IMG/VR virus record: IMGVR_UViG_3300035698_010625
Location: 41,619-105,618 of that record
Strand: one strand, 5' to 3'
From: a virus
Length of the DNA: 64,000 nt
In this document: positions 4,987 to 22,213 of the stretch, in pieces
Numbering within the stretch: the stretch's first letter is position 1
How the letters are laid out: each line of letters starts with the position of its first letter
Translations under genes and position numbers: made by a program
Notes under the pieces: model-generated
Database searches by the model: none
Told to the model about the DNA's origin: nothing
What the model saw: the letters and a program-made list of their open reading frames with translations, nothing else

Positions 4987-5364
4987 TCAAACCAAATCTC
5001 CATGTTTTTCAATGAGATAAGCAAGTCGCTCACGTAAAGCTTTTATTTCTTCAAGTGCTTCATATCGAGCTCGCGTTCTTTTATTCGTTGCGATCGCTTG
5101 AACAACCTTGGGATAATCACGAATCATTAAACTACGTTTGGGTACGAATGCATCACCAACCCACATTACAACAAATCCACCATCCAATTCAAGAGCGAGT
5201 GAATGATAGTTGTTGCGAATGATAATGTCAGCAACCCGTCCAGCATCGAGAATTGAGTTATAACGCTCGGCTTCCCACATTGAACCCGTAAGTGACATTG
5301 TTTTGTCATCGTCTAATTTGAAATAACGCAAGCTAGTAGCTTCTTTGATAACGTAATAAGCCAT
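4987..5364 (-). CDS. Hypothetical protein
   Basis: ORF; ATG preceded by a GGAG RBS. Confidence 0.6.
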   Translation of the reverse strand: MAYYVIKEATSLRYFKLDDDKTMSLTGSMWEAERYNSILDAGRVADIIIRNNYHSLALELDGGFVVMWVGDAFVPKRSLMIRDYPKVVQAIATNKRTRARYEALEEIKALRERLAYLIEKHGDLV

Positions 5365-9348: not shown

Positions 9349-9425
9349 GCCCTTCTAGCTAAACTGGACAAGGCCCTCGGCTACGAACTGAGAGATTGAA
9401 GGTTCGAATCCTTCGGAGGGTACCA
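9349..9425 (+). tRNA. tRNA-Arg(ACG)
   Basis: Cloverleaf, CT-ACG-AA, TTCGAAT, CCA. Confidence 0.93.
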
Positions 9426-9441
9426 TATTAAGGAGTTTGTT

Positions 9442-9600
9442 ATGAGTAAATGGGATTACCCCAAGACTAAGAAGAATTCTGATGGAGCAAAACTGACTGC
9501 TGCTGAATTACGCGCACAAAGAAAAGCTCATCGGAAAGCAATTAAAGCTACTGCTCATACTGAACTCAAGACGAAGAAAAATAAAGATCAAATTAAGTAA
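9442..9600 (+). CDS. Small Lys-rich protein
   Basis: AAGGAG RBS; MSKWDYPKTKK... Confidence 0.55.
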   Translation: MSKWDYPKTKKNSDGAKLTAAELRAQRKAHRKAIKATAHTELKTKKNKDQIK

Positions 9601-9605
9601 CAATT

Positions 9606-9682
9606 GGGTGCTTCGTATAACGGCACATTATGTCGGACTCTTAATCCGAACGATCTGGGTTCGAATCCCAGGGTACCCACCA
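9606..9682 (+). tRNA. tRNA-Lys(CTT)
   Basis: TCGGA-CT-CTT-AA-TCCGA, CCA. Confidence 0.92.
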
Positions 9683-9697
9683 AACAAAGGTATTATT

Positions 9698-9970
9698 ATG
9701 GAATTCACTGCTGAACTTGCTAAACAAATAGTTGAAGAAGATCATGATGATTGGGAACAAGTTAATGAAGAATCTTCTAATTCTTCCCGATGGCATACTC
9801 ATTACAGTGGTGTTTATAAAAATACATTAACTGGAAAATACTATGAATTTATTTGGCAGCGTGGTTCTACTGAATATCAAGATGAAGGTACAGAATTTTA
9901 CACTGACCCAATAGAAGCTGTAGAAGTTATTGAAAAATCAGTAACTGTAATGCGCTGGGTTGCTGTTTAG
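9698..9970 (+). CDS. Conserved phage hypothetical protein
   Basis: SRWHTHYSGVYK...G.TEYQD motif; true ATG lies after the tRNA. Confidence 0.7.
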   Translation: MEFTAELAKQIVEEDHDDWEQVNEESSNSSRWHTHYSGVYKNTLTGKYYEFIWQRGSTEYQDEGTEFYTDPIEAVEVIEKSVTVMRWVAV

Positions 9971-10065
9971 TTTGTACGCGGACGGTACTGCTTGGCAGTC
10001 CACTTGAATATCTTGTGGGTCACTGCACAGTCCGGGTTGAAGAACCTTAAACTTAACTAACAATT

Positions 10066-10141
10066 GCCGGTGAAGCAATCAGGGTATTGCAACTCGTTGT
10101 CTGCGAGAGATAGGAGGGTTCGAGTCCCTTCATCGGCGCCA
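10066..10141 (+). tRNA. tRNA-Asp(GTC)
   Basis: Loop TT-GTC-TG, G73, CCA. Confidence 0.85.
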
Positions 10142-10147
10142 ATTTTT

Positions 10148-10223
10148 GGGGGATTAGCTCATCTGGGAGAGCGTCTGTTTTGCAAGCAGAAGGTGATCGG
10201 TTCGAGTCCGATATCTTCCACCA
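10148..10223 (+). tRNA. tRNA-Ala(TGC)
   Basis: G3:U70 pair, TT-TGC-AA, CCA. Confidence 0.95.
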
Positions 10224-10258
10224 TTTTACTAGAAAGATTCATATACTTTCTAGACATT

Positions 10259-10336
10259 CGTTCGGTAGCTCAGCCTGGTTAGAGCACCCGTCTGATACGC
10301 GGTAGGTCGAAGGTTCAACTCCTTCTCGAACGACCA
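10259..10336 (+). tRNA. tRNA-Ile(GAT)
   Basis: CT-GAT-AC loop, canonical D and T arms, CCA. Confidence 0.88.
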
Positions 10337-10341
10337 ATTTA

Positions 10342-10446
10342 AAGAGCTTAGGTGTAGAAACGAGAATGCACCTTTAAGAAAACCTTGTTGCTGGGCTACC
10401 CGATAAATCATCTTCTCAGATGTATGCAACACAAACTTCAGCTCTT
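10342..10446 (+). ncRNA. Orphan structured RNA
   Basis: Closing stem AAGAGCT/AGCTCTT enclosing AGGTGTA/TGCACCT and branched TGTTGC/GCAACA stems. Confidence 0.5.
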
Positions 10447-10450
10447 CCTT

Positions 10451-10581
10451 TTGTACTGTCATGCGGGGTCGCCTCGGTGACGAAAGTGCTAGCGGGTACC
10501 GTCTTAGTAACGGTTTCACGAGGTGCAGGACCTCGGGGGTTTTCAGTTTCCACAATCGGGCTAGCTAAAACTGAAGTACAA
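10451..10581 (+). ncRNA. Orphan structured RNA with twin GCTAGC loops
   Basis: TTGTAC/GTACAA closing stem, long CGGGGTC-GCCTC-GTGA rod, TTCAGTTT/AAACTGAA hairpin. Confidence 0.55.
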
Positions 10582-10593
10582 TTTTATTACAAT

Positions 10594-10670
10594 GCTACGT
10601 TCGTCTAATGGACTAGGACTCTGGGTTTTCACTTCAGATAATATCGGTTCGAATCCGATACGTAGTACCA
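10594..10670 (+). tRNA. tRNA-Glu(TTC)
   Basis: Glu-type D arm TCGTCTAA...AGGAC, TT-TTC-AC, CCA. Confidence 0.9.
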
Positions 10671-10678
10671 ATTTCAAT

Positions 10679-10754
10679 TCCTAGTTAGTATTCTTGGTGA
10701 GCACGGGTGACTGTTAATCACTTCAGGTAGGTTCGAATCCTACACTAGGAGCCA
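10679..10754 (+). tRNA. tRNA-Asn(GTT)
   Basis: GGTGA-CT-GTT-AA-TCACT, G73, CCA. Confidence 0.92.
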
Positions 10755-10761
10755 AATCAAT

Positions 10762-10836
10762 GAGAGTTTAGTTCAAGTTAGAACATCTGGCGCAATAGTC
10801 AGAAGATGCTGGTATCGAATCCAGTCCCTTTCACCG
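10762..10836 (+). ncRNA. tRNA-like RNA with 8-nt non-canonical anticodon loop
   Basis: D arm GTTC/GAAC, TCTGG-CGCAATAG-TCAGA, T-like arm GCTGG/CCAGT; weak acceptor, ends ACCG. Confidence 0.6.
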
Positions 10837-10842
10837 AATAAT

Positions 10843-10928
10843 GGATGTGATGTACCGGTGGTGGTATAGCGGGCTGTAACCCCGTGGCTCTTATGGGCGA
10901 GTAGGTTCGACTCCTTCCACATCCACCA
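10843..10928 (+). tRNA. tRNA-Tyr(GTA)
   Basis: CT-GTA-AC, long variable arm, CCA. Confidence 0.9.
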
Positions 10929-11016
10929 ATTTCGTTGGCAGTAAGGTCACGCATTGAGATTGACCTCCTAGTAATAGGTACCTGATGGGTAAATTAAAAA
11001 GTGCGATTTCAAATTC

Positions 11017-11094
11017 CGGTGATTAGCTCAGCCTGGTTAGAGCTCTCCGTTTGGGGCGGAGTTGCCAGAGGTTCGAATCCTCTATCACCGACCA
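11017..11094 (+). tRNA. tRNA-Pro(TGG)
   Basis: CTCCG-TT-TGG-GG-CGGAG, C1-G72, CCA. Confidence 0.95.
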
Positions 11095-11187
11095 ATAACT
11101 AATTATCTAATGTGCTTGCCGGCATATGCGGATGATTGCACGAACTTCTATTGATAACAAGCGGTAACTTGTAATCATAAGATGAGT

Positions 11188-11251
11188 TAATTAGTAGTTT
11201 AACGGTAGATCGCCTGGCTGGAAGATGCGGGTTCGAATCCTGTCTAATTAC
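11188..11251 (+). ncRNA. tRNA-like RNA with vestigial anticodon arm
   Basis: TAATTAG/CTAATTA acceptor, D loop AACGGT, GCGGG-TTCGAAT-CCTGT; about 10 nt in place of the anticodon arm; no CCA. Confidence 0.55.
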
Positions 11252-11267
11252 TTTCGTGATTTACAAC

Positions 11268-11342
11268 AGTTCCTTAACTCAGAGGCAGAGTATCGCTTTT
11301 ACACAGCGAAGGTCGAGATTTCGAAATTCTCAGGAACTACCA
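11268..11342 (+). tRNA. tRNA-Val(TAC)
   Basis: TCGCT-TT-TAC-AC-AGCGA, CCA. Confidence 0.9.
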
Positions 11343-11409
11343 GTAACTAATCAACAGCTCGATGGGAGTCTTGCTATTTGATTGCACAGCGTCTTACTCC
11401 CATAAGATT

Positions 11410-11478
11410 TATTGATAGTGTAATGGATGCACACTGGGGTTTAAACCTGGAAGTACGGTTCGATTCCGTGATTAATAA
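11410..11478 (+). ncRNA. Degenerate tRNA-like RNA with TTA at the anticodon position
   Basis: TATTGAT/ATTAATA acceptor, GTGT/GCAC D arm, CTGGG-GTTTAAA-CCTGG, TTCGATT T loop; no CCA. Confidence 0.5.
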
Positions 11479-11530
11479 CTTGGGCTGTGATTTACAAATC
11501 GCTTGAGCAACTGCTCGCGTACAATACAAT

Positions 11531-11618
11531 GGGAGTGTGGTGGAATTGGTATACACATTGGTCTTAGAAACCAACGACTGTAATGGTCACGCAGGTTCGA
11601 CTCCTGTCACTCCTACCA
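11531..11618 (+). tRNA. tRNA-Leu(TAG)
   Basis: Leu D arm GGTGGAATTGGTATACAC, CT-TAG-AA, variable arm, CCA. Confidence 0.95.
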
Positions 11619-11624
11619 ATCAAT

Positions 11625-11692
11625 GTTCGATTAGCATAATGCAATGCGGCAAGTACTTGTAGAAGAAAGCTCGAATCTTTCATCGAACTCCA
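11625..11692 (+). ncRNA. Anticodon-less tRNA mimic (68 nt, CCA end)
   Basis: GTTCGAT/ATCGAAC acceptor, GCAT/ATGC D arm, GCAAG-TA-CTTGT, GAAAG-CTCGAAT-CTTTC, T-CCA. Confidence 0.75.
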
Positions 11693-11701
11693 AATTTAAA
11701 C

Positions 11702-11775
11702 GCTCAATTAGTTCAATGGTAGAACAACGGCCCGGTAAGTCGTTAACGTAAGTTCGATTCTTACATTGAGCACCA
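11702..11775 (+). tRNA. tRNA-Thr(GGT), C33 variant
   Basis: ACGGC-CC-GGT-AA-GTCGT, CCA. Confidence 0.85.
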
Positions 11776-11781
11776 ATTAAT

Positions 11782-11858
11782 GCCCGGTTCGTCTAAATAT
11801 TAGGACCTCTGCCATATTTGAGCAGAAAATAAAAGTGAGATTCTTTTACCGGACACCA
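11782..11858 (+). ncRNA. tRNA mimic with 9-nt anticodon loop
   Basis: Glu-like D arm, TCTGC-CATATTTGA-GCAGA, AAAAG-TGAGATT-CTTTT, A-CCA. Confidence 0.7.
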
Positions 11859-11864
11859 AACAAT

Positions 11865-11937
11865 GCCAAGGTCGTCTAATAATCTAAGACCCTCTCGTGA
11901 TAGAGAGAAATGAGGTGTAAATCCCCCCGAGGCACCA
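11865..11937 (+). ncRNA. tRNA mimic with 6-nt anticodon loop
   Basis: Glu-like D arm, CTCTC-GTGATA-GAGAG, acceptor GCCAAGG/CCGAGGC, A-CCA. Confidence 0.65.
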
Positions 11938-11943
11938 AACAAT

Positions 11944-12019
11944 GCTGGAGTCGTCTAACGGCTAGGACTTTACATTCTCAGTGTAAACAATGCGAGTTCG
12001 AATCTCGTCTCCAGTACCA
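11944..12019 (+). tRNA. tRNA-Glu(CTC)
   Basis: TTACA-TT-CTC-AG-TGTAA, CCA. Confidence 0.9.
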
Positions 12020-12024
12020 AATCT

Positions 12025-12111
12025 GGATTGATCCGCTGGGTAGGCCGGCAGCACGGTTTGAACCCGTGGGTGACCGAAAGGTTAGGGGTTCGACTCCTCA
12101 TCTCTCCGCCA
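12025..12111 (+). tRNA. tRNA-Ser(TGA)
   Basis: CACGG-TT-TGA-AC-CCGTG, GAAA-capped variable arm, G73, CCA; acceptor mismatches at pairs 4-5. Confidence 0.82.
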
Positions 12112-12118
12112 ATTTTAT

Positions 12119-12194
12119 CCTTCGCTCGTCTAATGTTAAGACACCAAACCGTGGAGGTTTGGGGATAGAGGTTTGATTCCTTTGCTTAGGACCA
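12119..12194 (+). ncRNA. tRNA mimic with extended anticodon stem
   Basis: CCAAACC-GTGGA-GGTTTGG arm, AGAGG-TTTGATT-CCTTT, acceptor CCTTCGC/GCTTAGG, A-CCA. Confidence 0.68.
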
Positions 12195-12202
12195 ATTTTA
12201 AT

Positions 12203-12253
12203 GACTACTTCCTATACGTAGGTTAATAACTGAAAAGTTAAGAGTGGTCACCA
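12203..12253 (+). ncRNA. 51-nt mini-tRNA-like RNA
   Basis: 7-bp GACTACT/AGTGGTC + A + CCA; two tetraloop hairpins CCTA-TACG-TAGG and TAACT-GAAA-AGTTA. Confidence 0.6.
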
Positions 12254-12347
12254 AGTTATCCCACACTCATCGAATGGTACGGTAAACGTTAAGAAACGTT
12301 TCGTGGGGAGTTTATCAGAAAGCCGTGACAGATAGACAACTAACAAT

Positions 12348-12421
12348 AGCTGCATAGCATAGTGGTAATGCGGGGGTCTTTGAAACCTCTCAGTAAGGTT
12401 CGATTCCTTATGCGGCTGCCA
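12348..12421 (+). tRNA. tRNA-Gln(TTG)
   Basis: GGGGT-CT-TTG-AA-ACCTC, G73, CCA. Confidence 0.92.
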
Positions 12422-12425
12422 ATTT

Positions 12426-12497
12426 TGATGTGGATATAATCTATCCCTTGTGCGGGTGCCCCTAGTAATAGGTCAAGGCAGCAAACTGCTCACATCA
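12426..12497 (+). ncRNA. Orphan four-way-junction RNA
   Basis: TGATGTG/CACATCA closing stem; arms GATA/TATC, CTTG/CAAG (containing CCTA-GTAA-TAGG) and GCAG-CAAA-CTGC. Confidence 0.45.
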
Positions 12498-12507
12498 GAT
12501 TTAATAT

Positions 12508-12594
12508 GGAAGATTAACTAGACAGGGTTCTAGAGCTGTTTGCTAAACAGATGGTACCGCAAGGTATGAGTTTCGAATACTCAATTTTCCGCCA
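12508..12594 (+). tRNA. tRNA-Ser(GCT)
   Basis: TT-GCT-AA loop, GCAA-capped variable arm, G73, CCA. Confidence 0.88.
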
Positions 12595-12623
12595 AACATA
12601 AAGAAAAATTAAGTATTAACAAT

Positions 12624-12698
12624 GGGACTCAGGTGTAACTGGGTGCACGGCGGACTTTTAATCCGTAAGGACAGGGTTCAAGCCCTGGGGTCCCACCA
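12624..12698 (+). tRNA. tRNA-Lys(TTT)
   Basis: GCGGA-CT-TTT-AA-TCCGT, CCA. Confidence 0.92.
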
Positions 12699-12785
12699 AA
12701 TGTAAATGGAAATGCTTCGGCATTGTAAAACTCACCGAAAGGTTTCCACCCAAGTGTGGATATAAAGAAGTTCCGATTAGTCAAT

Positions 12786-12859
12786 GCGTCTAAGTACAAG
12801 GTGTATCCTCGGGTTTCCAACCCGTAGTGAGTGGGTTTCGATTACCCCTAGTCGCTCCA
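12786..12859 (+). tRNA. tRNA-Gly(TCC)
   Basis: CGGG-TT-TCC-AA-CCCG, GCG acceptor, U73, CCA; irregular D and T arms. Confidence 0.75.
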
Positions 12860-12864
12860 ACAAT

Positions 12865-12937
12865 AGTTATCTAGCTCAACTGGCAGAGCACTAGCTTCAT
12901 ACGTTAGGGAATCTCGGTTCAAATCCGAGGGTAACTA
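12865..12937 (+). tRNA. tRNA-Met/Ile2(CAT), elongator type
   Basis: CTAGC-TT-CAT-AC-GTTAG; CCA not encoded (ends CAA). Confidence 0.85.
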
Positions 12938-12943
12938 CAATCT

Positions 12944-12951
12944 TATAAATA
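12944..12951 (+). promoter_or_regulatory. T4-type late promoter
   Basis: TATAAATA upstream of the ORF at 12978. Confidence 0.7.
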
Positions 12952-12977
12952 CTCTTTTAATAAACGAGTATCAGAAA

Positions 12978-13232
12978 ATGCAAACTTTTAAAAGTTTCAC
13001 CGAAGGAAATGTCGTTAAATTTCCTAAGAAGAAAAAACAAACCCACGATGAAATTACTGGATTGCCAATTGATTCACGTCTTCCAGATACCCCAGACGAA
13101 TGGATGGTTGTATCAAAGGATGAGAGTGTAGCATATAGCACTTCACCAACTCGTCAAGAAGCACAGAAAAAACTTAAGACGTATATGATGAAGACAGGTA
13201 AGAGAGATCTTAAAGTCATCAAATTTGGCTAA
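12978..13232 (+). CDS. Putative internal head protein (capsid-targeting-like leader)
   Basis: MQTFKSFTE N-terminus; late promoter upstream. Confidence 0.6.
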   Translation: MQTFKSFTEGNVVKFPKKKKQTHDEITGLPIDSRLPDTPDEWMVVSKDESVAYSTSPTRQEAQKKLKTYMMKTGKRDLKVIKFG

Positions 13233-13238
13233 GATAAT

Positions 13239-13270
13239 CCTCGCCAAGAAGGTCTAAACCATATATAATG
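13239..13270 (+). promoter_or_regulatory. Sigma70-type promoter, copy 1
   Basis: TCGCCA-N17-TATAAT; 30/32 identical to 19805-19836. Confidence 0.7.
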
Positions 13271-13280
13271 ATATAACAAA

Positions 13281-13352
13281 GCGGGTATAGCTCAGTGGTA
13301 GAGCGGAACGTTGCCAACGTCCAGGTCGAGAGTTCGAATCTCTCTACCCGCT
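13281..13352 (+). tRNA. tRNA-Gly(GCC)
   Basis: GCGGGTA acceptor, TT-GCC-AA, U73; CCA not encoded. Confidence 0.92.
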
Positions 13353-13562
13353 CTAATTTAGGATTATATGATGAATTTGGGACTAACAAGTGATTGTGAG
13401 GCAGAAGCATATTTTGATAGCGCTGATACTTACATCAAACAATACAACGCTACTTATATGTTTGAGAATAGTTCTGCGAGAGTCCGAACTATCATTGCTG
13501 AATATTTTGCTAATCTAGATAATAAAACTATTTGGCTTTGGAAAACTAAGAGTGATTGAATC

Positions 13563-13781
13563 ATGCGCCTTATCATTTCGCGGACTAACAATGACAGCAC
13601 TTTGGACTTCGAAGTTCATGATGCACGTTGGGTTACTTTTAGTGATAAAATGAAAGCATTTGCTTGGACTCGTCCGGGTAATAAGCTTGGAATTTACTTC
13701 TCCGAGGAATATGTCAATCGCCGCTTTGTGAACATCTTTTGCATTAGCGCGCTTGAGAACATGCACTGGCAGGTTAAGTGA
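13563..13781 (+). CDS. Hypothetical protein
   Basis: ORF in a small coding block within the tRNA array. Confidence 0.5.
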   Translation: MRLIISRTNNDSTLDFEVHDARWVTFSDKMKAFAWTRPGNKLGIYFSEEYVNRRFVNIFCISALENMHWQVK

Positions 13782-13791
13782 GGATTACATT

Positions 13792-13983
13792 ATGTGGATT
13801 CGATTTGAAGAGAAACAACCCAAACAAGATAAAGACCTTTATTACTTCTTCGATGTAGTAGGTGTTCACTCAGGGCGCTATTACGGCGGTGATACATTTC
13901 AAGGCCGAAGAGGTTTTCTCAATGGTGACGTTACTCATTGGCAATATGATAAAGGGCAGGGAAAACCTGCTGAACCAAAATGA
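13792..13983 (+). CDS. DUF551-like small protein
   Basis: MWIRFEEKQP...VTHW.....P motif. Confidence 0.6.
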   Translation: MWIRFEEKQPKQDKDLYYFFDVVGVHSGRYYGGDTFQGRRGFLNGDVTHWQYDKGQGKPAEPK

Positions 13984-13988
13984 ATAAT

Positions 13989-14065
13989 GCAAGAGTGGCT
14001 CGACTGGTGAAGGCCGGCGTCTTATATGCGTCTATATGTGGGTTCGAATCCCGCCTCTTGTACCA
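13989..14065 (+). tRNA. tRNA-Ile(TAT)
   Basis: GGCGT-CT-TAT-AT-GCGTC, A73, CCA. Confidence 0.88.
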
Positions 14066-14073
14066 AAATATTT

Positions 14074-14150
14074 CAGGGTATAAGTCAGTCTGGTAGACAC
14101 CCCGGTTTGGAACTGGGAAGCCGTTGGTTCGAATCCAACTACCCTGACCA
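14074..14150 (+). tRNA. tRNA-Pro(TGG), second copy with A37
   Basis: CCCGG-TT-TGG-AA-CTGGG, C1-G72, CCA. Confidence 0.9.
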
Positions 14151-14167
14151 TTTAAAGAGAGTACATT

Positions 14168-14428
14168 ATGCTTACATTCAATATTAAAGATTTCTTTTGT
14201 TGGCATAGTATTCAAAAAGAAGAGTCATTTGAAGCTTTTCATGCAAGAGCAGAAGCACTGCATGAAACTTATCAACATTGGACTCCTGTAAATGAAATTG
14301 AAAGAACAAATAGAGCAGTATGTTTTGTATCTTTTATTAACAATCACCCAAAAATCGTAAATCCATATACTGGTAAAACAAAAAAACAATTTTCTTTAAC
14401 GGAATATCCTATATCTACCTTGTCTTAA
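14168..14428 (+). CDS. Hypothetical protein
   Basis: ORF with a GAGAG RBS. Confidence 0.5.
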   Translation: MLTFNIKDFFCWHSIQKEESFEAFHARAEALHETYQHWTPVNEIERTNRAVCFVSFINNHPKIVNPYTGKTKKQFSLTEYPISTLS

Positions 14429-14451
14429 AGGTTGTATAATGATTATTCAAT

Positions 14452-14527
14452 ACACGGTAAGCAATTATGGTTAATGCGCTGGCTTGAAGTCCCAGATAAC
14501 TAAGTTCGATTCTTAGACCGTGTACCA
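14452..14527 (+). tRNA. tRNA-Phe(GAA)
   Basis: CTGG-C-TT-GAA-GT-C-CCAG, CCA. Confidence 0.83.
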
Positions 14528-14550
14528 ATTTATTATGGAGTGACTGTGAT

Positions 14551-15252
14551 ATGTTTGCTGATTTTTGCACTGATCATTTCTCGACGAGTAACAATGCACA
14601 TTACAGAAATCCGCGAACTGTTGACCAAAATGTAATTGCTAATGAGACAATGCTATTTAGCGCATCTCCAGAATTTGCTACTGCAAATGGTGGCCCACTT
14701 ACTGCTTACTTTCTCTCCAAGCTTTTTGATGGTGGATTTGAAAGCATTGATACTCGAGGAATGCATTGGGTCATTGATACTCGCTCGCACATGCTGATGC
14801 CAGGTCAATTTCCTTCTATTCCAGGTTGGCATTGTGATGCTTGGGAGCGAGATCCAAAGACACAACAACCACTTTTATGGCAGCACCCACATGGTACCGC
14901 TATGCATTTTGTAATGACACTTGGTACTAATGATGATGGTGTATCACTTACAAAATTCATACTTCCTTTTGGTGTGCCGATTCGTGTATCTTACGATCCA
15001 TCCAAAGTTTGGGGTTCTGTAAACGAATCAATTGAACACCAAATTGAAGATCTCGTTATATCACCAGATAGAATTATTAGTGCGCCTTCAGGGACACTCA
15101 TTTCGTTTGGACAAAACATATTACATACGGCTAGTGTAGCTACCAGTAAAGGCTGGCGCTTCTTTGCTCGTATAAGTTTAATGACAAATCCACCACTCAA
15201 CAAAATTCGAAAACAGGTACAAGTTTACGCTGATTCAAATGTTGGTTGGTAA
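14551..15252 (+). CDS. 2OG-Fe(II) oxygenase-like protein
   Basis: PGWHCD (HxD), distal LH and R.F.R motifs. Confidence 0.7.
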   Translation: MFADFCTDHFSTSNNAHYRNPRTVDQNVIANETMLFSASPEFATANGGPLTAYFLSKLFDGGFESIDTRGMHWVIDTRSHMLMPGQFPSIPGWHCDAWERDPKTQQPLLWQHPHGTAMHFVMTLGTNDDGVSLTKFILPFGVPIRVSYDPSKVWGSVNESIEHQIEDLVISPDRIISAPSGTLISFGQNILHTASVATSKGWRFFARISLMTNPPLNKIRKQVQVYADSNVGW

Positions 15253-15338
15253 ATGAATTAAGGGAAACGTTGGTTCGAGTCCAACTCCTGCGCTGGTGCA
15301 AAGGATCGTAATTGATGGCCAAGACACCCTTACGTTAC
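15249..15338 (+). ncRNA. Circularly permuted tRNA-like RNA (YrlA/Y-RNA-like architecture)
   Basis: Order T arm (GTTGG-TTCGAGT-CCAAC), loop-closed acceptor, D-like arm, all closed by TAAGGG/CCCTTA. Confidence 0.6.
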
Positions 15339-15341
15339 AAT

Positions 15342-15415
15342 GTTGATATGGCAGAATGGTTATGCCGTGGCTTGCAAACCCACTTACTCTGGTTCGATTC
15401 CGGATATCAACTCCA
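15342..15415 (+). tRNA. tRNA-Cys(GCA)
   Basis: TT-GCA-AA, U73, CCA. Confidence 0.92.
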
Positions 15416-15667
15416 AGATAAGGCTTTAGCCGCAGCAGAGTAGTCAGGCATGACATAAAAGGTCGAAATGAAAAAGTTTAGCCGGCTCGACCAGCTTTAT
15501 TTCTGAGTTCAAAGGTGGTCCTGAGCACGATGGATATGCACCAATTGTAAAAAATGTCTGTGATGGTGATTATACCGAATTCTCAGTTTGTTTGGAATGT
15601 GGTACTCTGAAAGGTACTTTCCCGGTTGATGATCCTGTTTGGAATGATGAAGAAGAAGATTAACAAT

Positions 15668-15737
15668 GCGCCGCGCTCTGGGTAAGCAGTATGGTTTCCA
15701 ATGCCTCGCGTGTGGAGTTCGATTCTCTGGCGGCGTG
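15668..15737 (+). ncRNA. Degenerate tRNA-Gly(TCC)-like RNA
   Basis: GCGCCGC/GCGGCGT acceptor, TGGAG-TTCGATT-CTCTG, TT-TCC-AA in a poorly paired arm; no CCA. Confidence 0.5.
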
Positions 15738-15762
15738 CACCTGTAATAGATTAAAGAATAAT

Positions 15763-15838
15763 AAGAGTATAGTATAATGGCTCATTACCCCGGGCTCTGA
15801 ACTCGGTAATCTAGGTTCGAATCCTAGTACTCTTGCCA
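15763..15838 (+). tRNA. tRNA-Gln(CTG)
   Basis: CCGGG-CT-CTG-AA-CTCGG, G73, CCA. Confidence 0.93.
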
Positions 15839-15845
15839 AATATAC

Positions 15846-15920
15846 GCCTGCTAAGCATTAATGGTGATGCACTGGTTTTGTAATCCAGAGAAGAGGGATC
15901 GTTACCTTCAGTCGGCACCA
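15846..15920 (+). tRNA. tRNA-Thr(TGT)
   Basis: TT-TGT-AA, CCA; atypical T loop ATCGTTA. Confidence 0.83.
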
Positions 15921-15923
15921 AAT

Positions 15924-15997
15924 CGCGAGATGTTGAAATGGCATCCTGCTGGGCTCATAACCCTTCGTTGGCGGTTCAACTCCGTCTTTCGCTACCA
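15924..15997 (+). tRNA. Initiator tRNA-fMet(CAT)
   Basis: C1:U72 mismatch, GGG/CCC in the anticodon stem, CT-CAT-AA, CCA. Confidence 0.87.
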
Positions 15998-16110
15998 ACT
16001 TTGTGAGATCGTCAAGTGTAATTATGTTAAAGCCCGAGATGATGACATTACAAAATGTACGAATCGGTTAATCTTTAACTAGCACAAGGGACATCTCACA
16101 AACTTTTTTA

Positions 16111-16251
16111 TGTTGTAACTGCAAGGATAATGCAGGGTGGTTGGAGAGCTTGTGAGGGTGTACAACCTTTTATCCACAGGTATAAAGTTAGCTTTAACAA
16201 ATCGAGGCGCTTTATAAATCTCTAGTGAAGTTCGATTCTTCATTACAACAC
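16111..16251 (+). ncRNA. tRNA-like RNA with ~85-nt branched domain replacing the anticodon arm
   Basis: TGTTGTAA/TTACAACA acceptor, TGCA-AGGATAA-TGCA arm, TGAAG-TTCGATT-CTTCA T arm. Confidence 0.62.
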
Positions 16252-16258
16252 TTTCAAT

Positions 16259-16346
16259 GGGAGTATGGTGGAATTGGTATACACAGCAGACTTAAAATCT
16301 GCCGCCTGTAATGGGCTCGGGGGTTCGAATCCCTCTACTCCTACCA
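16259..16346 (+). tRNA. tRNA-Leu(TAA)
   Basis: GCAGA-CT-TAA-AA-TCTGC, Leu D arm, CCA. Confidence 0.95.
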
Positions 16347-16786
16347 AATTAAGGTAAATATGATGCAGGAAACAAGCACTAAAACTATAGCAGATAAAGA
16401 AGCATTGATTCTGTCTGCTGGTGAATGTTATCCAGATACATCTAGTTTTATACGAGATGAAGTTGTGAAAGACATTAATTTTAAGCTAGTTGATAAGATG
16501 TGGGGCAAATAACGAGTGTTGCTCATGCTCCAACCTTCATATACAATGGTGAATGTAAACCTTGTGTAAGTAGGTTGTACCGTAGCTATTTGAGATACAC
16601 TTATATAACTGCTGCACACATTAATGCACTGGTGTATGACATGGTAGTGGAATTAGATGATTTACTTATAGATGCTTCTGAATTTCACCCATATATGATG
16701 GCGATACCACAATTAGCTGAAGAAGAATATATTGAATTTAATCGAATTGCATTCAAACTTCGATTTGCATTTTAAAGATTAACAAT

Positions 16787-16856
16787 GCCCCGGGTGTTGG
16801 ATACACAGCAGAGGTTTCTACCCTCAGCCTTCTGGGTTCGACTCCTAGTCGGGGTA
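16787..16856 (+). tRNA. tRNA-Arg(TCT) with shortened D arm
   Basis: GAGG-TT-TCT-AC-CCTC, GCCCCGG/TCGGGGT acceptor, canonical T arm. Confidence 0.72.
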
Positions 16857-16874
16857 CACCATTTAAGGTTCATT

Positions 16875-17153
16875 ATGAAATATCTTCTTGAGTTGTATTG
16901 GATGTGGAGGGACCGCCAAAGAGCAGAAGCTGAACTCGATAAATTCATAGCTGTTAAAAAGTGGGATGCTAGCATTCGTTGGAATAATGACAAATCGGTT
17001 GAAAACATTCTTTATATTGGTCTTGAAAATGGCCGTGGTGAACGTAAAATACAAATTCATGATTATGGATTAACCCGTACTTATTCTAAGTCGAAGGCCC
17101 ATCTCATTTATACAAAGTACGTTTTGCCATGGCAGCATAAAATAAATGAATAA
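16875..17153 (+). CDS. Hypothetical protein
   Basis: ATG after the tRNA with an AAGG RBS. Confidence 0.55.
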   Translation: MKYLLELYWMWRDRQRAEAELDKFIAVKKWDASIRWNNDKSVENILYIGLENGRGERKIQIHDYGLTRTYSKSKAHLIYTKYVLPWQHKINE

Positions 17154-17259
17154 TAACCTTTATCTTAAGGTCCTATATTGATATAATATACTTATTGGAA
17201 CGCACCTATTTTGCTGTCAACGCAATGTTGGCTTTTTTGTAATTAAACGGGGATACATT

Positions 17260-18084
17260 ATGATTACGCGAAACAAATTGGCTGTTGCTATTCTTGCTGC
17301 AGTTTCCATTACTACCGCAGCACACGCATCTGAAGTTACTACAATCACCGCTGGCTCCAAGGGCGGTGCATACGCTACTTATGGCAACAATCTTGCAACT
17401 ATGCTCACCCAGAATGATTGGAAGAGTAAGGTTATTCGCAGTAAGGGTTCAATTCAGAATATTGCCCGTCTTGTAGATGGCTCAGCACAAATTGGTTTCA
17501 CCCAGGGCGATGCTTTGCAGCTCTCAAAGGCTGGTGGTAAGATTGATATTCTTGGAGCACTTGGAATGGAATGTGCTTTCATTGTTTACAGTAAGAAGGG
17601 TAAGGTCACTGACGAAGATCATCTTCAGAATGAGGGTGTGAAAATTGCTGTTGGTAAGAAAGGTACTGGTTCACAAGCAACGTGGTCTTACATGGTTCAG
17701 CTAGAACCTGCATACGGTAATGCATCTGCACAGTATACTGGCGGAGCTCGCGCACTTGGCGCACTCAAAGCAGGCACTGTTGACGCTGTTCTCTTTGTCA
17801 CCGATCCCACTAATCTGAGTCATAAGCTTATTCAAGCAGTAAATGGTGATCCAGACCTCGATTTTCTAGACGTTGATGACAGTGACTTGAATGATGATCT
17901 ACCTAATGGCACGCCTGTCTATGAATTCAAAGAAGTTGACACTGAAACGGGTGCTTTCGCGGATGACGTAGATACTATCTGTACGCCTTTGCTAGTAATT
18001 GCTAGTGCAGATGCTGACGAAGACATGCTTGATGATGCTGCAGGAATTATGCTAAGCAATCGCAATGCGGTGCTTGGTAAGTAA
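17260..18084 (+). CDS. TAXI-family TRAP transporter solute-binding protein
   Basis: Signal peptide (AHA|S), G.KGGAY, SKGSIQNI..L..G.AQIGFTQGD, G..GTGS, ALKAGTVDA motifs. Confidence 0.85.
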   Translation: MITRNKLAVAILAAVSITTAAHASEVTTITAGSKGGAYATYGNNLATMLTQNDWKSKVIRSKGSIQNIARLVDGSAQIGFTQGDALQLSKAGGKIDILGALGMECAFIVYSKKGKVTDEDHLQNEGVKIAVGKKGTGSQATWSYMVQLEPAYGNASAQYTGGARALGALKAGTVDAVLFVTDPTNLSHKLIQAVNGDPDLDFLDVDDSDLNDDLPNGTPVYEFKEVDTETGAFADDVDTICTPLLVIASADADEDMLDDAAGIMLSNRNAVLGK

Positions 18085-18107
18085 CAATGCAAAAGATAGT
18101 CGTTCCC

Positions 18108-18305
18108 AAGTTAGTACTTAATCGCTCTACGGAGAGGAAAGTCGGGACAAGCGGCATGATCGTGTGGGAGGAGTTAACTCCGCTTTACCACCGTGACATA
18201 GCTTGCAACACAAACAGGATTAGACAAATTGTGCATCAATGATATCCGGGTTGTGGCCAATAGACGAATGATAGCATAGAACAGGATCCCGCTTACGGAT
18301 TACTT
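18108..18305 (+). ncRNA. rnpB: Miniature RNase P RNA (catalytic domain only)
   Basis: CR-I GAGGAAAGTCGGG (18134) pairs with CR-V ACAGGATCCCGCTTAC (18281) to form P4 with the bulged U; CR-IV-like AGACGAATGAT. Confidence 0.85.
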
Positions 18306-18594
18306 ACTACTTACAAGGAGCAAATGATGAGCAAGGTATACCCTCACTCAAGCACTAAGCAACGCGAACGATACGTGAAACAAAACGCTATTAAAGGCGA
18401 ACGCTCTATCGGGCAAACTGATGCTTCAGTAGGCTGGTATGGACTTACAGTAAATTGGAAAGCTATTGTGCGTGGTGCACCGTGTTACATTACAACTAAC
18501 TAAAAGGAGCAAGATATGCGCTTGATGAATTTAGAGCACCTCCTTAAATTGTGATTTTTGGTAAAACACTAATTCACACTTAAGGAAACATCTA

Positions 18595-18972
18595 ATGAAA
18601 ATCACTTATCTCAAAATTAAAGTAAAGTCACTAGCAGCAGAGTCACGCATGATCCGCCAAGAGGAGTTGAAACTCAAACGTCGATACCAGGCGATTAAAC
18701 TGTTGGACAATCAGTATGACACTGCAGCAGAAGAGGGAGACATAAGGTCTACTCGTTTAGGTCTTTATGAACACCGTACAGATGATGTACGTCGAGAGTC
18801 GCGTGTAGCTAATATTGCTTACGGTCTACTTCGAGGAAGAGAGTATAGCAAAATTGAGCGAGGAGTTCGGGAGTTTAATCAACCGAAATGGACACGCGTT
18901 ACAAAGTTGATTGAGAAGTATTCAAACAGTGAGGAGCAGAAGGTTAAAGCTTTTCAACTGATTGAGCAGTAA
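18595..18972 (+). CDS. Conserved phage hypothetical protein
   Basis: LKIKVKSLAAESRMIR...R.ANIAYGLLRGREYSKIE motif common in large phages. Confidence 0.75.
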   Translation: MKITYLKIKVKSLAAESRMIRQEELKLKRRYQAIKLLDNQYDTAAEEGDIRSTRLGLYEHRTDDVRRESRVANIAYGLLRGREYSKIERGVREFNQPKWTRVTKLIEKYSNSEEQKVKAFQLIEQ

Positions 18973-18983
18973 ATATCATGACG

Positions 18984-19006
18984 GAGCGCTTCGGCGCTCT
19001 CGTTTT
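18984..19006 (+). terminator. UUCG hairpin terminator
   Basis: GAGCGC-TTCG-GCGCTC followed by T residues. Confidence 0.75.
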
Positions 19007-19075
19007 GGCTGACACGGTGACTACCTGGCTTTCAATCCAAAGGAGTTTAGGGTTCGATTCCCTTATCAGCCACCA
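19007..19075 (+). ncRNA. tRNA-like RNA with reduced D arm (TTC in loop)
   Basis: GGCTGA/TCAGCC acceptor, AGGG-TTCGATT-CCCT, A-CCA. Confidence 0.6.
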
Positions 19076-19220
19076 AATTTTAGGAGAGGCATTATGAGTA
19101 TATTTGCTTGGATTGTTTTTCCATTTTTATTCCCCGTGGTTGTCGCAATGTTTTGGGTGCTGACACATGTGGATCCATACACTGGTAAGGTTCATTGGAA
19201 TCTTACGTGGTAAACGATAT

Positions 19221-19510
19221 CATGTAGTAGTTTAAATGTTGGCATTATGAGGAAAGGTGAAGATTATTTGAAAGTAAAATTAAGTTAGTAGCAATTCTGT
19301 AGTGGTGATGTAACGAGACGTGTAGGTAAAAACGTGAGCCAAATGAAAGATTGGACAGGCATCATCATCGAGGGCGTTGCGAATTCTTCTTTTGAACCCT
19401 TTAATTAGTAACCTTTACTTACGTGTCACACGGAAAAACGCTAGGAACCCCCCCGCTTACGCGTCTCTTAATCCTGGATATCCACGGTTCAATACCGGGC
19501 TACATGGCCA
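19221..19510 (+). ncRNA. 290-nt ornate tRNA-like RNA with 194-nt D-loop insertion
   Basis: CATGTAG/CTACATG-G-CCA acceptor, split D arm, 27-nt anticodon loop, T arm, 13-bp long-range pairing 19315-19327/19455-19467. Confidence 0.75.
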
Positions 19511-19534
19511 ATTTCTTGAAACGGAGTTTATAAT

Positions 19535-19780
19535 ATGAATGATTATTTTAATGCGTTTATTATGATTTTGGTTATAGCGATAGTAACAAATGTTGGTTGG
19601 ATTATTAATTATGATGATCTTAAAACACTTCATGAAAAGGCGTTAAGTATTCATAAGATTGAAGTCATGCAACATAGACAAGCTATTTGTCGTAGTGCAA
19701 CAGCTGAACACGCAACTAATACTGCTACACTCTTCGAAGCAATCAATAAGCTCAATTCTGCTGCTAAGGCTGCAGAATAA
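19535..19780 (+). CDS. Small membrane-anchored protein
   Basis: N-terminal TM helix; GGAG RBS. Confidence 0.6.
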   Translation: MNDYFNAFIMILVIAIVTNVGWIINYDDLKTLHEKALSIHKIEVMQHRQAICRSATAEHATNTATLFEAINKLNSAAKAAE

Positions 19781-19804
19781 TTTACTTTAATGGCATAAGA
19801 TATA

Positions 19805-19836
19805 CCTTGCCAAGAAGGTCGAAACCATATATAATG
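19805..19836 (+). promoter_or_regulatory. Sigma70-type promoter, copy 2 (upstream of the large RNA)
   Basis: TTGCCA-N17-TATAAT. Confidence 0.75.
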
Positions 19837-19844
19837 GTACTATA

Positions 19845-20730
19845 ATCTGAACACAAACTAATAGATTGGGTCGCGTGGGATCCATAAGATAAGTAGCAGT
19901 AATGTTACGAAAGGCTATCTCATTTACGGATAGCGCCACTTTTATGAAGGTGGACATCTACGCAAGCCAAGCTCTTTACGGGTACCTCCGGGTGCTCTGG
20001 AAGATAAGTTGTGACCGACAAACACATCCAGGCCAACGGTGAGGATGATAGATTCCGCAAGAATCTCGGGTCAAGCAAAAGCAACGAACTTCAATGAGCA
20101 AAGGGTAGATTGAAAAGTTAAGCTTGCAGGTAAGGCTTTCAATCAATACGATAGGTGAAAGAAGATACAGCCTTCTGGAATCTAGAAATATTGCTAAGTA
20201 GCTCGCAAGGCGAAAGGTACGAGGTGGGTGGTATTTGGTAACTCAAAGGTTATTGAGCCACAGGCATTCGCTCATCTTAAAATGTAAATATGTAAACGGA
20301 ATAGGGGAATAGGTACACCCGCCCGGCCGCCAAAGCCAGGATCTGTTGGTTCGAATCCAACTTTCGTTATCAACTTTGTATTGATAACAAATCTTAAATG
20401 CAAAGACGAATGCCACCGTGAAGTGGAAATTGCTTAATCCTCAAACCCATAGGGTAATTGAGGTTCAGGATGCTCGCAAGGCGGATTGAATTAGTTGGAG
20501 TCACAGGTAAATTCTTAGCGGAGTTACACAGCCCAGCAAGGCTGACCGGTCGATGAATGCTGAAAAGCTCGCGGATAGAGGAATCGCTACCTCTTTAAAC
20601 AAAGCAGCAATGGTTGATTACTATGCCGCTCTTCGGAGGGTAAAGTGGAAAAGAGAAGAACCTAGCGGATCGCACCGTGTGGATAATTTCTCGAAGGATC
20701 AACTGCATATGAGTATATTCTCAACTCATC
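19845..20730 (+). ncRNA. GOLLD-like large ncRNA
   Basis: About 890 nt with no credible ORF; many GCAA/GTAA/TTCG tetraloop stems; motifs recalled from GOLLD (GGTCGCG near the 5' end, GCTCGCAAGGC twice, AAATGCAAAGACG, CTTAAT, GCCCAGCAAGGCTG, GTGGAAAAG, terminal TATTCTCA hairpin); lies in a phage tRNA cluster. Confidence 0.75.
20295..20369 (+). ncRNA. tRNA-like element (CCA/Trp-like loop) embedded in the GOLLD-like RNA
   Basis: AACGGAA/TTTCGTT acceptor, GGG/CCC D stem, CCCGGC-CGCCAAA-GCCAGG, GTTGG-TTCGAAT-CCAAC. Confidence 0.7.
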
Positions 20731-20939
20731 TGTTTACTTATGGCAGGTTGTACGTTCTCTGCCTTAAACGTACTGGCTTTCTGGGGAGGCTCAGATAACC
20801 GGGTAGTTCACCTAACTACCTGCCATAAGTAAATAGGAAGATAATATGAACATTGATAAAGTTGAACTTCAGAAGATCTTTCTTGAAGTTTTTACTAAAC
20901 ACCCAGAAGCTGCAAAGATTTTTCTAAAGGGTAATAACT

Positions 20940-21239
20940 ATGAGCACGACCCCTACAAGAAGTTTGAGAGTTGAAAGATCATATACAAATAAGTTTAACC
21001 AAGTAATTGAAGTTGGTGATGAAGTAGTATTTGTTGCAACTTCTTGGGGTGGTACTGATATTCGCCAAGGTGTTTATCTTGGATATTACCCACGCACTGG
21101 TTGGGATGGTCGCCCTGCACTTCATGCTGCTAGTGTATCATACATTGGTAAGGAGTGGGATGGAAGAAAATGGATTGACGATGCAGTACTTCATTCTGTT
21201 CTTGAACTCGGTCGTGTTTTCAAAATTGAGAAAGTATAA
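20940..21239 (+). CDS. Hypothetical protein (paralog of 21239)
   Basis: N.FNQVIEVGDEV...R.GVY.GY...G.VFKI. Confidence 0.7.
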   Translation: MSTTPTRSLRVERSYTNKFNQVIEVGDEVVFVATSWGGTDIRQGVYLGYYPRTGWDGRPALHAASVSYIGKEWDGRKWIDDAVLHSVLELGRVFKIEKV

Positions 21240-21556
21240 TGGCATTCCTCGAAGAGTCATTTGTCAATGAAATCGGGCAACGTATTGAAGTTGGGGATCG
21301 TGTAATAGCGGTCGCACATGGATACAATCTCAACTGCCGTCCTGGTATCTATGAAGGTTATCACAGTCATGGCGAACAATATTATACTATCTCACAACTT
21401 GTAGAAACTGCAGATGGTGGGTTTAAGAAAGATGAACGTGGTAATTATGTGAGATATACGAAAAAACATTATTACATTCGAATGTTACATCGCGTATTGT
21501 ACGATGAAGGTTGGCGTGGAATACTTCAGAATGGTAACATTTTCAAAATTGCATAA
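21239..21556 (+). CDS. Hypothetical protein (paralog of 20940)
   Basis: NEIGQRIEVGDRV...RPGIYEGY...GNIFKI. Confidence 0.7.
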   Translation: MAFLEESFVNEIGQRIEVGDRVIAVAHGYNLNCRPGIYEGYHSHGEQYYTISQLVETADGGFKKDERGNYVRYTKKHYYIRMLHRVLYDEGWRGILQNGNIFKIA

Positions 21557-21560
21557 CAAT

Positions 21561-21650
21561 GGCATTGTGGTGGAACTAAGGTATACACAGCGTCTTCAAA
21601 AGCCGCCGGTCTTTGAGACTATGAGGGTTCGACTCCCTCCGATGCTACCA
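21561..21650 (+). tRNA. tRNA-Leu(CAA)
   Basis: Leu D arm, TT-CAA-AA, variable arm, CCA. Confidence 0.9.
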
Positions 21651-21763
21651 AGTTTAGGTTAACGAGTAACAGGCTTATAAGAAGTCGCGGTTCTTAGGTT
21701 CCTCTCCATACTGTTAATTTGGAGGAAAAGTTACTCACTCACACTATACAAAGGATCTTTATT

Positions 21764-22213
21764 ATGGGTATTATTAAACGTGATAGTATGCTTGGCCGTT
21801 GGATCTTTTCACCCAATACTTTTATCTATCAAGATGCTAAACTCTCTAGTGTTGAAACTATTAATTCTTGTCAAATTGTGCAAATGATTCTTTGGCGGTG
21901 CTTTGTAACTGTCGCAGTACTTTTTCTTGGATTTGTACTTGGTACACTAACCATCGGCTTGGTTACTGGGTTAGGCACTATGGTTGGTTTTTTCGACTTT
22001 GCTGCAATTTTCTTGTATGATTCATATTTTGGTGGTGCAGTAATGCTAGCTGGATTGATGTCAGTAATGGGATTAGTTATCGCTGGTTCATATTATTTTG
22101 AAGAATGGAAGATAGCCCGTCAGCACAAGCCCCGTGATGTTGACTCTGTTGTTGAAATCATGTATGATGGTTTCAAAAATAAGTTCTGCCCAATTTTTAA
22201 GGTAGTCGATTAA
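21764..22213 (+). CDS. Membrane protein
   Basis: 2-3 TM segments; K.KFCP C-terminus typical of phage membrane proteins. Confidence 0.7.
   Translation: MGIIKRDSMLGRWIFSPNTFIYQDAKLSSVETINSCQIVQMILWRCFVTVAVLFLGFVLGTLTIGLVTGLGTMVGFFDFAAIFLYDSYFGGAVMLAGLMSVMGLVIAGSYYFEEWKIARQHKPRDVDSVVEIMYDGFKNKFCPIFKVVD

Follow-up and report, generated by a model that had tools for sequence, protein, structure and literature searches.

GOLLD RNAs are among the largest structured RNAs of bacteria and phages; atomic structures of them exist, and their function is not known. Published cryo-EM work shows self-assembly into 12- to 14-mer cages with the variable linker facing the interior, and in the 14-mer cage of Kretsch et al. 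(10.1101/2024.12.08.627333) the unresolved linker points inward. Covalently linked tRNAs are shown for GOLLD RNAs in Fig. 4C of Kretsch et al. (10.1101/2024.12.08.627333), and a pseudo-tRNA lies inside the GOLLD of Mycobacterium aubagnense, where a Northern blot detected the GOLLD but no separate pseudo-tRNA (PMC6582537). A tRNA-Phe has also been placed in the linker (J13/15) of a Mycolicibacterium GOLLD (Morgado 2020, as relayed in PMC12990946), and "inhibited storage" of the linker tRNA has been proposed (PMC12990946). A tRNA module in a linker that faces the lumen is the most concrete clue to GOLLD function.

The original prediction for the DNA studied here was of a GOLLD-like RNA with a Trp-like tRNA in its linker, serving for the conditional release or shielding of an RNA cargo. 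The idea of release or shielding is already published speculation (Kretsch et al.; PMC12990946). Likewise, a tRNA in a GOLLD linker is a layout that has been described before and is common, and not a new kind of thing.

The window, a stretch of 64,000 nucleotides, comprises bases 41619-105618 of the IMG/VR record IMGVR_UViG_3300035698_010625 (105,618 bp). CheckV puts the completeness of this record at 59%, with ~41% of the genome missing. The record encodes T4-type replication genes (a family B DNA polymerase, UvsX, and a DnaB/gp41-like helicase), and the carrier of the GOLLD is an uncultured, T4-like salt-lake phage of the lytic type. The sequencing runs that contain the GOLLD region are salt-lake DNA metagenomes only. 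Contigs from four runs are identical to the window wherever they cover it, with one exception: a salt-lake contig of low depth (5) carries one additional T after position 19939, in the 5' domain of the GOLLD. A blastn search of 19800-20800 against 50,697 phage records gave zero matches, and searches for related loci that started from the upstream 81-aa ORF and from the DNA polymerase were likewise negative. Since no close phage relatives were found, the covariation figures given below are those of the class, and none belongs to the Trp-like module itself. The GOLLD lies in a tRNA island with 28 free tRNAs within 11 kb (ARAGORN, default thresholds). The features of the locus are collected in Table 1.

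Table 1. Features of the GOLLD locus and its surroundings, in window coordinates
Feature	Position	Strand	Basis or remark
Second, free-standing tRNA-like element with anticodon CCA	15668-15738	+	Relaxed ARAGORN thresholds only
RNase P-like RNA	18110-18311	+	RNase P RNA class A, 38.3 bits, E 1.2e-9
Sigma-70-type promoter, TTGCCA-N17-TATAAT	19807-19835	+	11/12 positions match
Full-length GOLLD RNA, ~885 nt	19843-20727	+	5' end inferred from promoter; 3' end is that of the Rfam match
GOLLD 5' domain	19866-20278	+	nhmmer homology; includes the hairpin 20221-20276 that opens the Rfam model
Variable linker (J13/15 in cryo-EM nomenclature)	20279-20395	+	Large insertion in the Rfam alignment
tRNA-shaped module, anticodon CCA, 75 nt	20295-20369	+	Rfam tRNA, ARAGORN, folding
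8-bp hairpin, GTTATCAA/TTGATAAC	20366-20388	+	Exact pairing
Conserved GOLLD 3' domain, begins AAAUGCAAAG	20396-20727	+	Rfam and nhmmer
Structured element, ~105 nt, immediately 3' of the GOLLD	20730-20836	+	19-bp closing stem around three hairpins

Is the RNA a GOLLD? The Rfam model RF02032 matches 20221-20727 on the plus strand over its full length (1-416) with 151.6 bits (E 1.8e-40), in agreement with the predicted identity and above the gathering score of 150 by a narrow margin of 1.6 bits. The model spans just the last hairpin of the 5' domain, the linker, and the 3' core. The 5' domain is recognised by homology: a single-sequence nhmmer search with 19866-20278 matched 58 sequences of the extract set, the window's own extract included, and a profile built from these 58 gave 93 matches. 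A pairwise alignment with another GOLLD locus, L003, also supports the assignment. The 3' half has 100 nhmmer matches in the extract set, reaching E 2.8e-51 after iteration, and with profiles of 19860-20290 and 20390-20730 the corresponding halves were found in the same order at ~90 loci. Fifteen of 16 sampled homologous loci pass the Rfam gathering score for GOLLD, with 157-224 bits. Homology in both the 5' and the 3' domain makes a spurious Rfam match unlikely despite the margin of 1.6 bits, and the location is that of a GOLLD, on a viral contig with tRNA genes alongside. The RNA is almost certainly a GOLLD with an integral linker tRNA module, which is a known kind. With at most 60% identity to any of 59 others (in profile columns) and a long branch in the tree, it is a divergent addition to the known family. 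A weak match to the RNaseP_arch model at 20216-20447 (18 bits, E 0.024) was taken as noise.

The original prediction of an RNA of ~890 nt with its own promoter agrees well with the ~885 nt found here behind the best of 14 promoter-like sites in 19000-22000. This promoter places the probable transcription start near 19842; a second TATAAT is present at 19841-19846. Counted from where the 5' domain ends as far as GCAAA, the linker is 122 nt long, the longest among the sampled GOLLDs, and the other linkers that hold a tRNA have 72-114 nt. The structured element that follows the GOLLD folds with -47.6 kcal/mol (z = -5.6 against shuffles); no homologue of it was found in ~170 fetched loci or in the rest of the record, and no Rfam model matches it.

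The module in the linker scores 40.4 bits with the Rfam tRNA model RF00005 (gathering score 29), and ARAGORN at default settings calls it a tRNA-Trp(cca). Thus, both programs recover the proposed cloverleaf with the loop CGCCAAA at its predicted position. Folded in isolation, the module takes the cloverleaf form in the minimum-energy and the centroid structure alike. The acceptor stem has 7 bp (AACGGAA/TTTCGTT, with one G-U), the D stem is 3 bp long and its loop contains G18 and G19, and the T arm is perfect, with the loop TTCGAAT. All the non-canonical traits that had been pointed out beforehand are there: G33 takes the place of U33 in the anticodon loop (which has A37 and A38), the anticodon stem contains a C-A mismatch, the discriminator is A73, and CCA is not encoded. 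There is also one extra base between the D and anticodon arms. The module has neither the U33 nor the regular 5-bp anticodon stem by which a decoding tRNA is judged; among the matches listed, G33 occurs in 2 of the 1346 free tRNAs of GOLLD-bearing loci.

In bacteria, the major identity elements for TrpRS are the anticodon CCA and G73, and the minor ones are A1-U72, G5-C68, and A9, as established for E. coli and B. subtilis. The module has CCA, A1-U72, G5 (as G5-U68), and A9, and it has A73, not G73. By nearest-neighbour comparison, 39 phage tRNA-Trp genes (mean identity 56%) are no more similar to the module than other tRNA types are, and its best sequence matches are Met and two other embedded modules.

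A 16-nt AU-rich leader precedes the module, and a 26-nt trailer, which contains the hairpin at 20366-20388, follows it. The alternative pairing foreseen for the acceptor 3' strand is exact. The hairpin takes in G70-U72 and A73, and in a context of 124 nt the fold with closed acceptor (-21.7 kcal/mol) and the fold with the hairpin (-21.5 kcal/mol) are nearly isoenergetic, 0.2 kcal/mol apart.

CCA is encoded by 24 of the 28 free tRNAs of the window and not by the embedded module. In the span examined (9349-21561), the motif (A/T)CAAT ends exactly at position -1 in 13 of the 28 (background 0.005 per position), and the module lacks it. This motif may be a processing or leader signal. Several tRNA mimics in the same span are also preceded by (A/T)CAAT.

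How usual is a tRNA in this linker? A first survey pattern, in which the T loop is joined to the start of the 3' core, was found in at least 119 IMG/VR stretches. In 89 of the 119 matches listed, the GOLLD 3' domain comes straight after the T loop; in 85 of the matches listed the 5' domain also immediately precedes, and 75 contain an ARAGORN tRNA between the two domains. A second pattern, for the 3' core only and thus unconditioned on a tRNA, gave 49 stretches, 37 of them GOLLD by nhmmer. Here a tRNA is called in 21 of the 37 linkers and a T-loop motif is present in 5 more, 26/37 in total, and in ~10 of the 37 GOLLDs the linker is short (43-53 nt) and devoid of a tRNA. Two earlier, stricter DNA patterns gave only 4 loci and 1 locus. 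A tRNA-shaped linker module is therefore the usual state of the GOLLD subfamily to which the window copy belongs.

The matches listed hold ~100 embedded modules at the same junction, such as the Gln module of L003. Asn is the largest group and forms one crown clade; Lys, Leu, Gln, His, Met, Arg, Thr, Ile, Gly, Pro, Cys, Tyr, Ser, Glu, and suppressor-like modules with tta and cta are also present, and the window copy is the only Trp among the matches listed. The thought that embedded identities might mirror the targets of anticodon nucleases was dropped, since the distribution is dominated by one clade. In a separate contig group from one sample series (L012, L018, L033, L049, L074, L082, L087, L094, L104), the GOLLD 3' domain ends ~35 nt before a free tRNA-Ile(tat), which lies outside the GOLLD.

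Embedded tRNAs are not built like the free tRNAs of the same loci. Among the matches listed, CCA is encoded by 1 of 80 embedded tRNAs, compared with 1138 of 1346 free ones (85%). Pairing in the D, anticodon, and T stems is 97-98% over 58 different embedded tRNAs, and double-sided changes number 363 against a mean of 116 in shuffles. By contrast with this strict pairing, the top of the acceptor stem is relaxed: the outer three acceptor pairs are standard in 56-71% of embedded and 95-99% of free tRNAs, and all seven pairs are standard in 10% and 87%, respectively (pairing was counted by best register and, separately, from the alignment). The anticodons drift as well. Among them are A34 types (att, atg, ata) and 4-base calls, and near-identical bodies bear GTT, TTT, CTT, ATT, or GAT, shifting between Asn, Lys, Ile, and Thr.

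The tRNA module persists along long, deep branches of the GOLLD tree. Sister GOLLDs with 100/100 support (L009/L058 and L017/L045) were seen to carry unrelated embedded bodies, Thr-tgt and Asn-gtt, and other pairs to differ at base 34 alone (Asn GTT and Lys TTT). Unrelated bodies on the one hand and single differences at base 34 on the other indicate that the linker tRNA changes both by cassette swap and by point mutation. Taken together, these figures suggest that the class has a selected tRNA shape, with the aminoacyl end and the anticodon free of the normal constraint on tRNAs. Most of the other embedded tRNAs lie flush with the two domains, at a distance of 0-5 nt. The window copy departs from most of the class in having all seven acceptor pairs intact and spacers on both sides.

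Does the embedded module supply a tRNA that the phage otherwise lacks? The original prediction held that the free tRNAs cover every amino acid except Trp. At default ARAGORN thresholds this stands, in the window and in the 105.6-kb record alike: the 28 free tRNAs represent 19 amino acids, and Trp is found only inside the GOLLD. All 31 Rfam tRNA matches of the record fall in the one island, and the three elements detected by Rfam only have UGU, CAU, or no anticodon arm. Neither ARAGORN nor Rfam finds a canonical free tRNA-Trp elsewhere in the 105.6-kb record. However, relaxed ARAGORN thresholds add a poorer, free-standing element with a CCA anticodon at 15668-15738, and to this extent the claim of a single gap needs qualifying.

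The second element has a GC-rich 7-bp acceptor stem, U33, A37, G73, a canonical T loop (TTCGATT), and the island's ACAAT leader at -1. It encodes no CCA, its D stem has 3 bp, and there are two mismatches in its anticodon stem. Even at E up to 10 Rfam gives no match to it, its fold of lowest energy is other than a cloverleaf, and a pattern search for its relatives found none. The record, 41% incomplete, thus has two Trp-like elements, both of them aberrant, and lacks a canonical one. Two further tRNA-like genes on the plus strand have the anticodon TTA and would read UAA: 11410-11479, which scores 30 bits in Rfam, and 16179-16251, which ARAGORN reports only at relaxed settings. Large ORFs look normal under table 11, which gives no hint of recoding.

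Other GOLLD loci speak to the same question. In eight of them the free tRNAs cover 20 amino acids, so that the embedded tRNA can only duplicate an amino acid already covered, and six of these eight repeat its anticodon among the free tRNAs. The loci with complete sets include three 350-kb phages that are rated 100% complete, each with its own free tRNA-Trp. Across 15 other loci with free sets of at least 16 amino acids, 0 embedded tRNAs fill a gap; the embedded tRNA of the window does. One gap-filling locus is about what a 1-in-20 chance would give. Taken alone, the single-gap coincidence would amount to a likelihood ratio of roughly 10-fold, and it is discounted because the genome is incomplete, a second Trp-like gene is present, complementarity is absent in near-complete sets, and many GOLLD loci were examined. 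The Trp label and the single gap are interesting but weak, and the argument that the module completes the set, weakened by the 59% completeness of the record, by the element at 15668-15738, and by the redundancy in other loci, is a weak one.

Could the phage mature an embedded tRNA? The RNA at 18110-18311 scores below the gathering score of 100, yet it spans the whole model of bacterial class A RNase P RNA in only 202 nt, and it looks like a miniature phage RNase P RNA. A 389-aa ORF outside the window (G000:C1, about 4786-5124) matches PolyA_pol (PF01743) with 96.8 bits and is a predicted nucleotidyltransferase of the CCA-adding type, from the family of CCA-adding enzymes. With these two, the phage owns candidate genes for the maturation of tRNA ends. 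Rfam matches to tmRNA were also seen in the tRNA islands of other GOLLD phages (L031:2282-2618, 78.2 bits; L057:5476-5873, 56.6 bits). An encoded CCA blocks RNase Z. The missing CCA of the module fits a retained domain and an RNase Z substrate alike, and so decides for neither.

On balance, though with no great firmness, we consider the module to be probably a built-in, lumen-facing, tRNA-shaped domain that is retained in the GOLLD and is not a decoding tRNA-Trp. The GOLLD RNA would be transcribed from its own promoter within the tRNA island and would assemble into a cage with the linker inward, as is established for the family and presumed for the window copy. The tRNA module would stay covalently attached inside the cage, where its L-shape may serve to dock or bait some tRNA binder; the CCA anticodon would be incidental, and the module would not be the decoding tRNA-Trp of the phage.

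The class-level data lean towards retention. Among embedded tRNAs, the rarity of CCA, the relaxed acceptor top, the drift of anticodons, and the redundancy with complete free sets all point this way, as does the Northern blot of M. aubagnense, in which no separate pseudo-tRNA was seen (PMC6582537). For the window copy itself, the same is suggested by G33, the C-A mismatch, the extra base between the D and anticodon arms, the 3-bp D stem, and A73, together with the missing CCA, the missing (A/T)CAAT leader, and a competing hairpin within 0.2 kcal/mol. Other features of the window copy argue against retention. Its seven acceptor pairs are intact, at the very end that is read by processing enzymes and synthetases; it has spacers of 16 and 26 nt, whereas most embedded tRNAs lie flush; it is the sole well-folded tRNA with a CCA anticodon beside a set of 19 amino acids; and the RNase P-like RNA and the nucleotidyltransferase would provide the means of maturation. 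The intact acceptor stem and the flanking spacers thus leave room for release.

A possible but rather unlikely alternative is that the GOLLD is a depot or precursor from which the module is released as a working tRNA-Trp, the only one of the phage, that decodes UGG. Here the closed cage, or the capture of the acceptor 3' strand in the hairpin at 20366-20388, would keep RNase P and RNase Z out. Upon opening, cuts would be made at 20295 and after 20369, and the phage nucleotidyltransferase would add CCA; the cuts would split the GOLLD into its 5' and 3' domains, by analogy with the excision of mascRNA from MALAT1.

Much about the module is consistent with such a release. The 7-bp acceptor stem is whole, with single-stranded spacers on either side, and the cloverleaf that the isolated module forms includes G18, G19, and a canonical T loop. 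Minor Trp identity elements are matched by C34, C35, A36, A37, and A38, with A1-U72, G5, and A9. The 105.6 kb of the record are without a canonical free tRNA-Trp, an RNase P-like RNA and an enzyme of the CCA-adding type are predicted for the phage, an RNase Z substrate needs a CCA-less 3' end, and the acceptor and hairpin conformers are near-isoenergetic. The hypothesis is, moreover, one that has already been published.

Set against this, G33, the C-A mismatch, the irregular junction between the D and anticodon arms, and A73 for G73 are poor credentials for a decoder, the leader of the island's tRNAs is missing, and the module is not nearer to the 39 phage tRNA-Trp genes than to other tRNA types. 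Class-wide redundancy, relaxed acceptor tops, and drifting anticodons also count against release. The gap in the free set carries little weight with a record that is 59% complete and contains a second Trp-like gene at 15668-15738, and a chance gap-filler is expected among the many GOLLD loci examined. The strictest form of this reading, in which excision from the GOLLD cage is the sole source of usable tRNA-Trp, with a timed release gated by cage and hairpin and with the predicted miniature RNase P RNA and CCA-adding enzyme of the phage finishing maturation, is doubtful and would be the less expected outcome by some way. If true, such a timed-release depot for an essential decoder would be the first demonstrated function of GOLLD.

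It is quite improbable that the module is the decaying remnant of a tRNA gene that came to lie in a tolerant linker and drifts there with no role as a tRNA or a domain: several of its features are non-canonical, its Rfam score is low (23rd of 28 tRNA hits), and the ~10 of 37 GOLLDs with no linker tRNA indicate that the module is dispensable for the fold, but the 58 embedded tRNAs keep three stems 97-98% paired with 363 double-sided changes against 116, which argues that the shape is selected, the window copy retains four stems, the canonical T loop, and the G18 G19 pair, and the module is kept on deep, long branches of the GOLLD tree.

What does the locus add to the picture of GOLLD? In the GOLLD literature searched, we did not find the module described as the majority state (26/37), nor the figures of 1 in 80 and 85% for encoded CCA, nor the three covarying stems below a relaxed acceptor top, nor the redundancy with complete tRNA sets. 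Together, the survey figures favour a built-in, tRNA-shaped domain over a stored decoder. The window copy is an informative exception, with its intact acceptor stem and spacers, no canonical free tRNA-Trp in the record, and candidate maturation genes. It is thus well suited to a clean test of whether the module is released or retained, and the survey figures are the more general result.

Among known systems, one parallel is of mechanism and not of family membership: MALAT1-mascRNA and MEN-beta (PMC8457004, PMC11693755). As in these, a tRNA shape lies within a long non-coding RNA and may present a cutting signal for RNase P and RNase Z, and an interaction between leader and trailer could modulate the cut. 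Those RNAs are eukaryotic, their tRNA-like part is near the RNA 3' end, and cleavage has been demonstrated, whereas any cleavage of the window GOLLD is hypothetical. Another parallel is with T4: the phage of the window is T4-like, has some CCA-less tRNAs, and carries putative tRNA-maturation genes of its own. The CCA-less tRNA precursors of T4 need the host RNase BN/Z and the CCA-adding enzyme. Unlike in T4, CCA-less tRNAs are the exception in the window, where 24 of the 28 free tRNAs encode CCA.

Within the family, the window copy shares the 3' core, the variable 5' domain, and the linker with the env-38 GOLLD (14-mer, PDB 9MEE) and the S. agalactiae GOLLD (12-mer, 9L0R), and it shares the setting in a phage tRNA island with other RF02032 GOLLDs. 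Unlike env-38 and S. agalactiae GOLLD, it is highly divergent, has the longest linker of those sampled, and is a predicted multimer. The Mycobacterium and Mycolicibacterium GOLLDs, as described in PMC6582537 and PMC12990946, likewise have a tRNA-shaped element in J13/15 and a large tRNA array; they are chromosomal and their element is labelled Phe, whereas the window copy belongs to a T4-like phage and has a Trp label, an intact acceptor stem, and spacers.

The same layout is seen in other IMG/VR loci, such as L057 (Leu-cag), L003 (Gln-ttg), and the crown clade with Asn-gtt. Like the window copy, they have a 5' domain, a CCA-less tRNA, AAANGCAAAG, and a 3' domain, in this order. In these loci the tRNA is flush within 0-5 nt and has U33, and mismatches are frequent in pairs 1-72 to 3-70. 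By contrast, the window copy has spacers of 16 and 26 nt, an extra hairpin, G33, and seven acceptor pairs.
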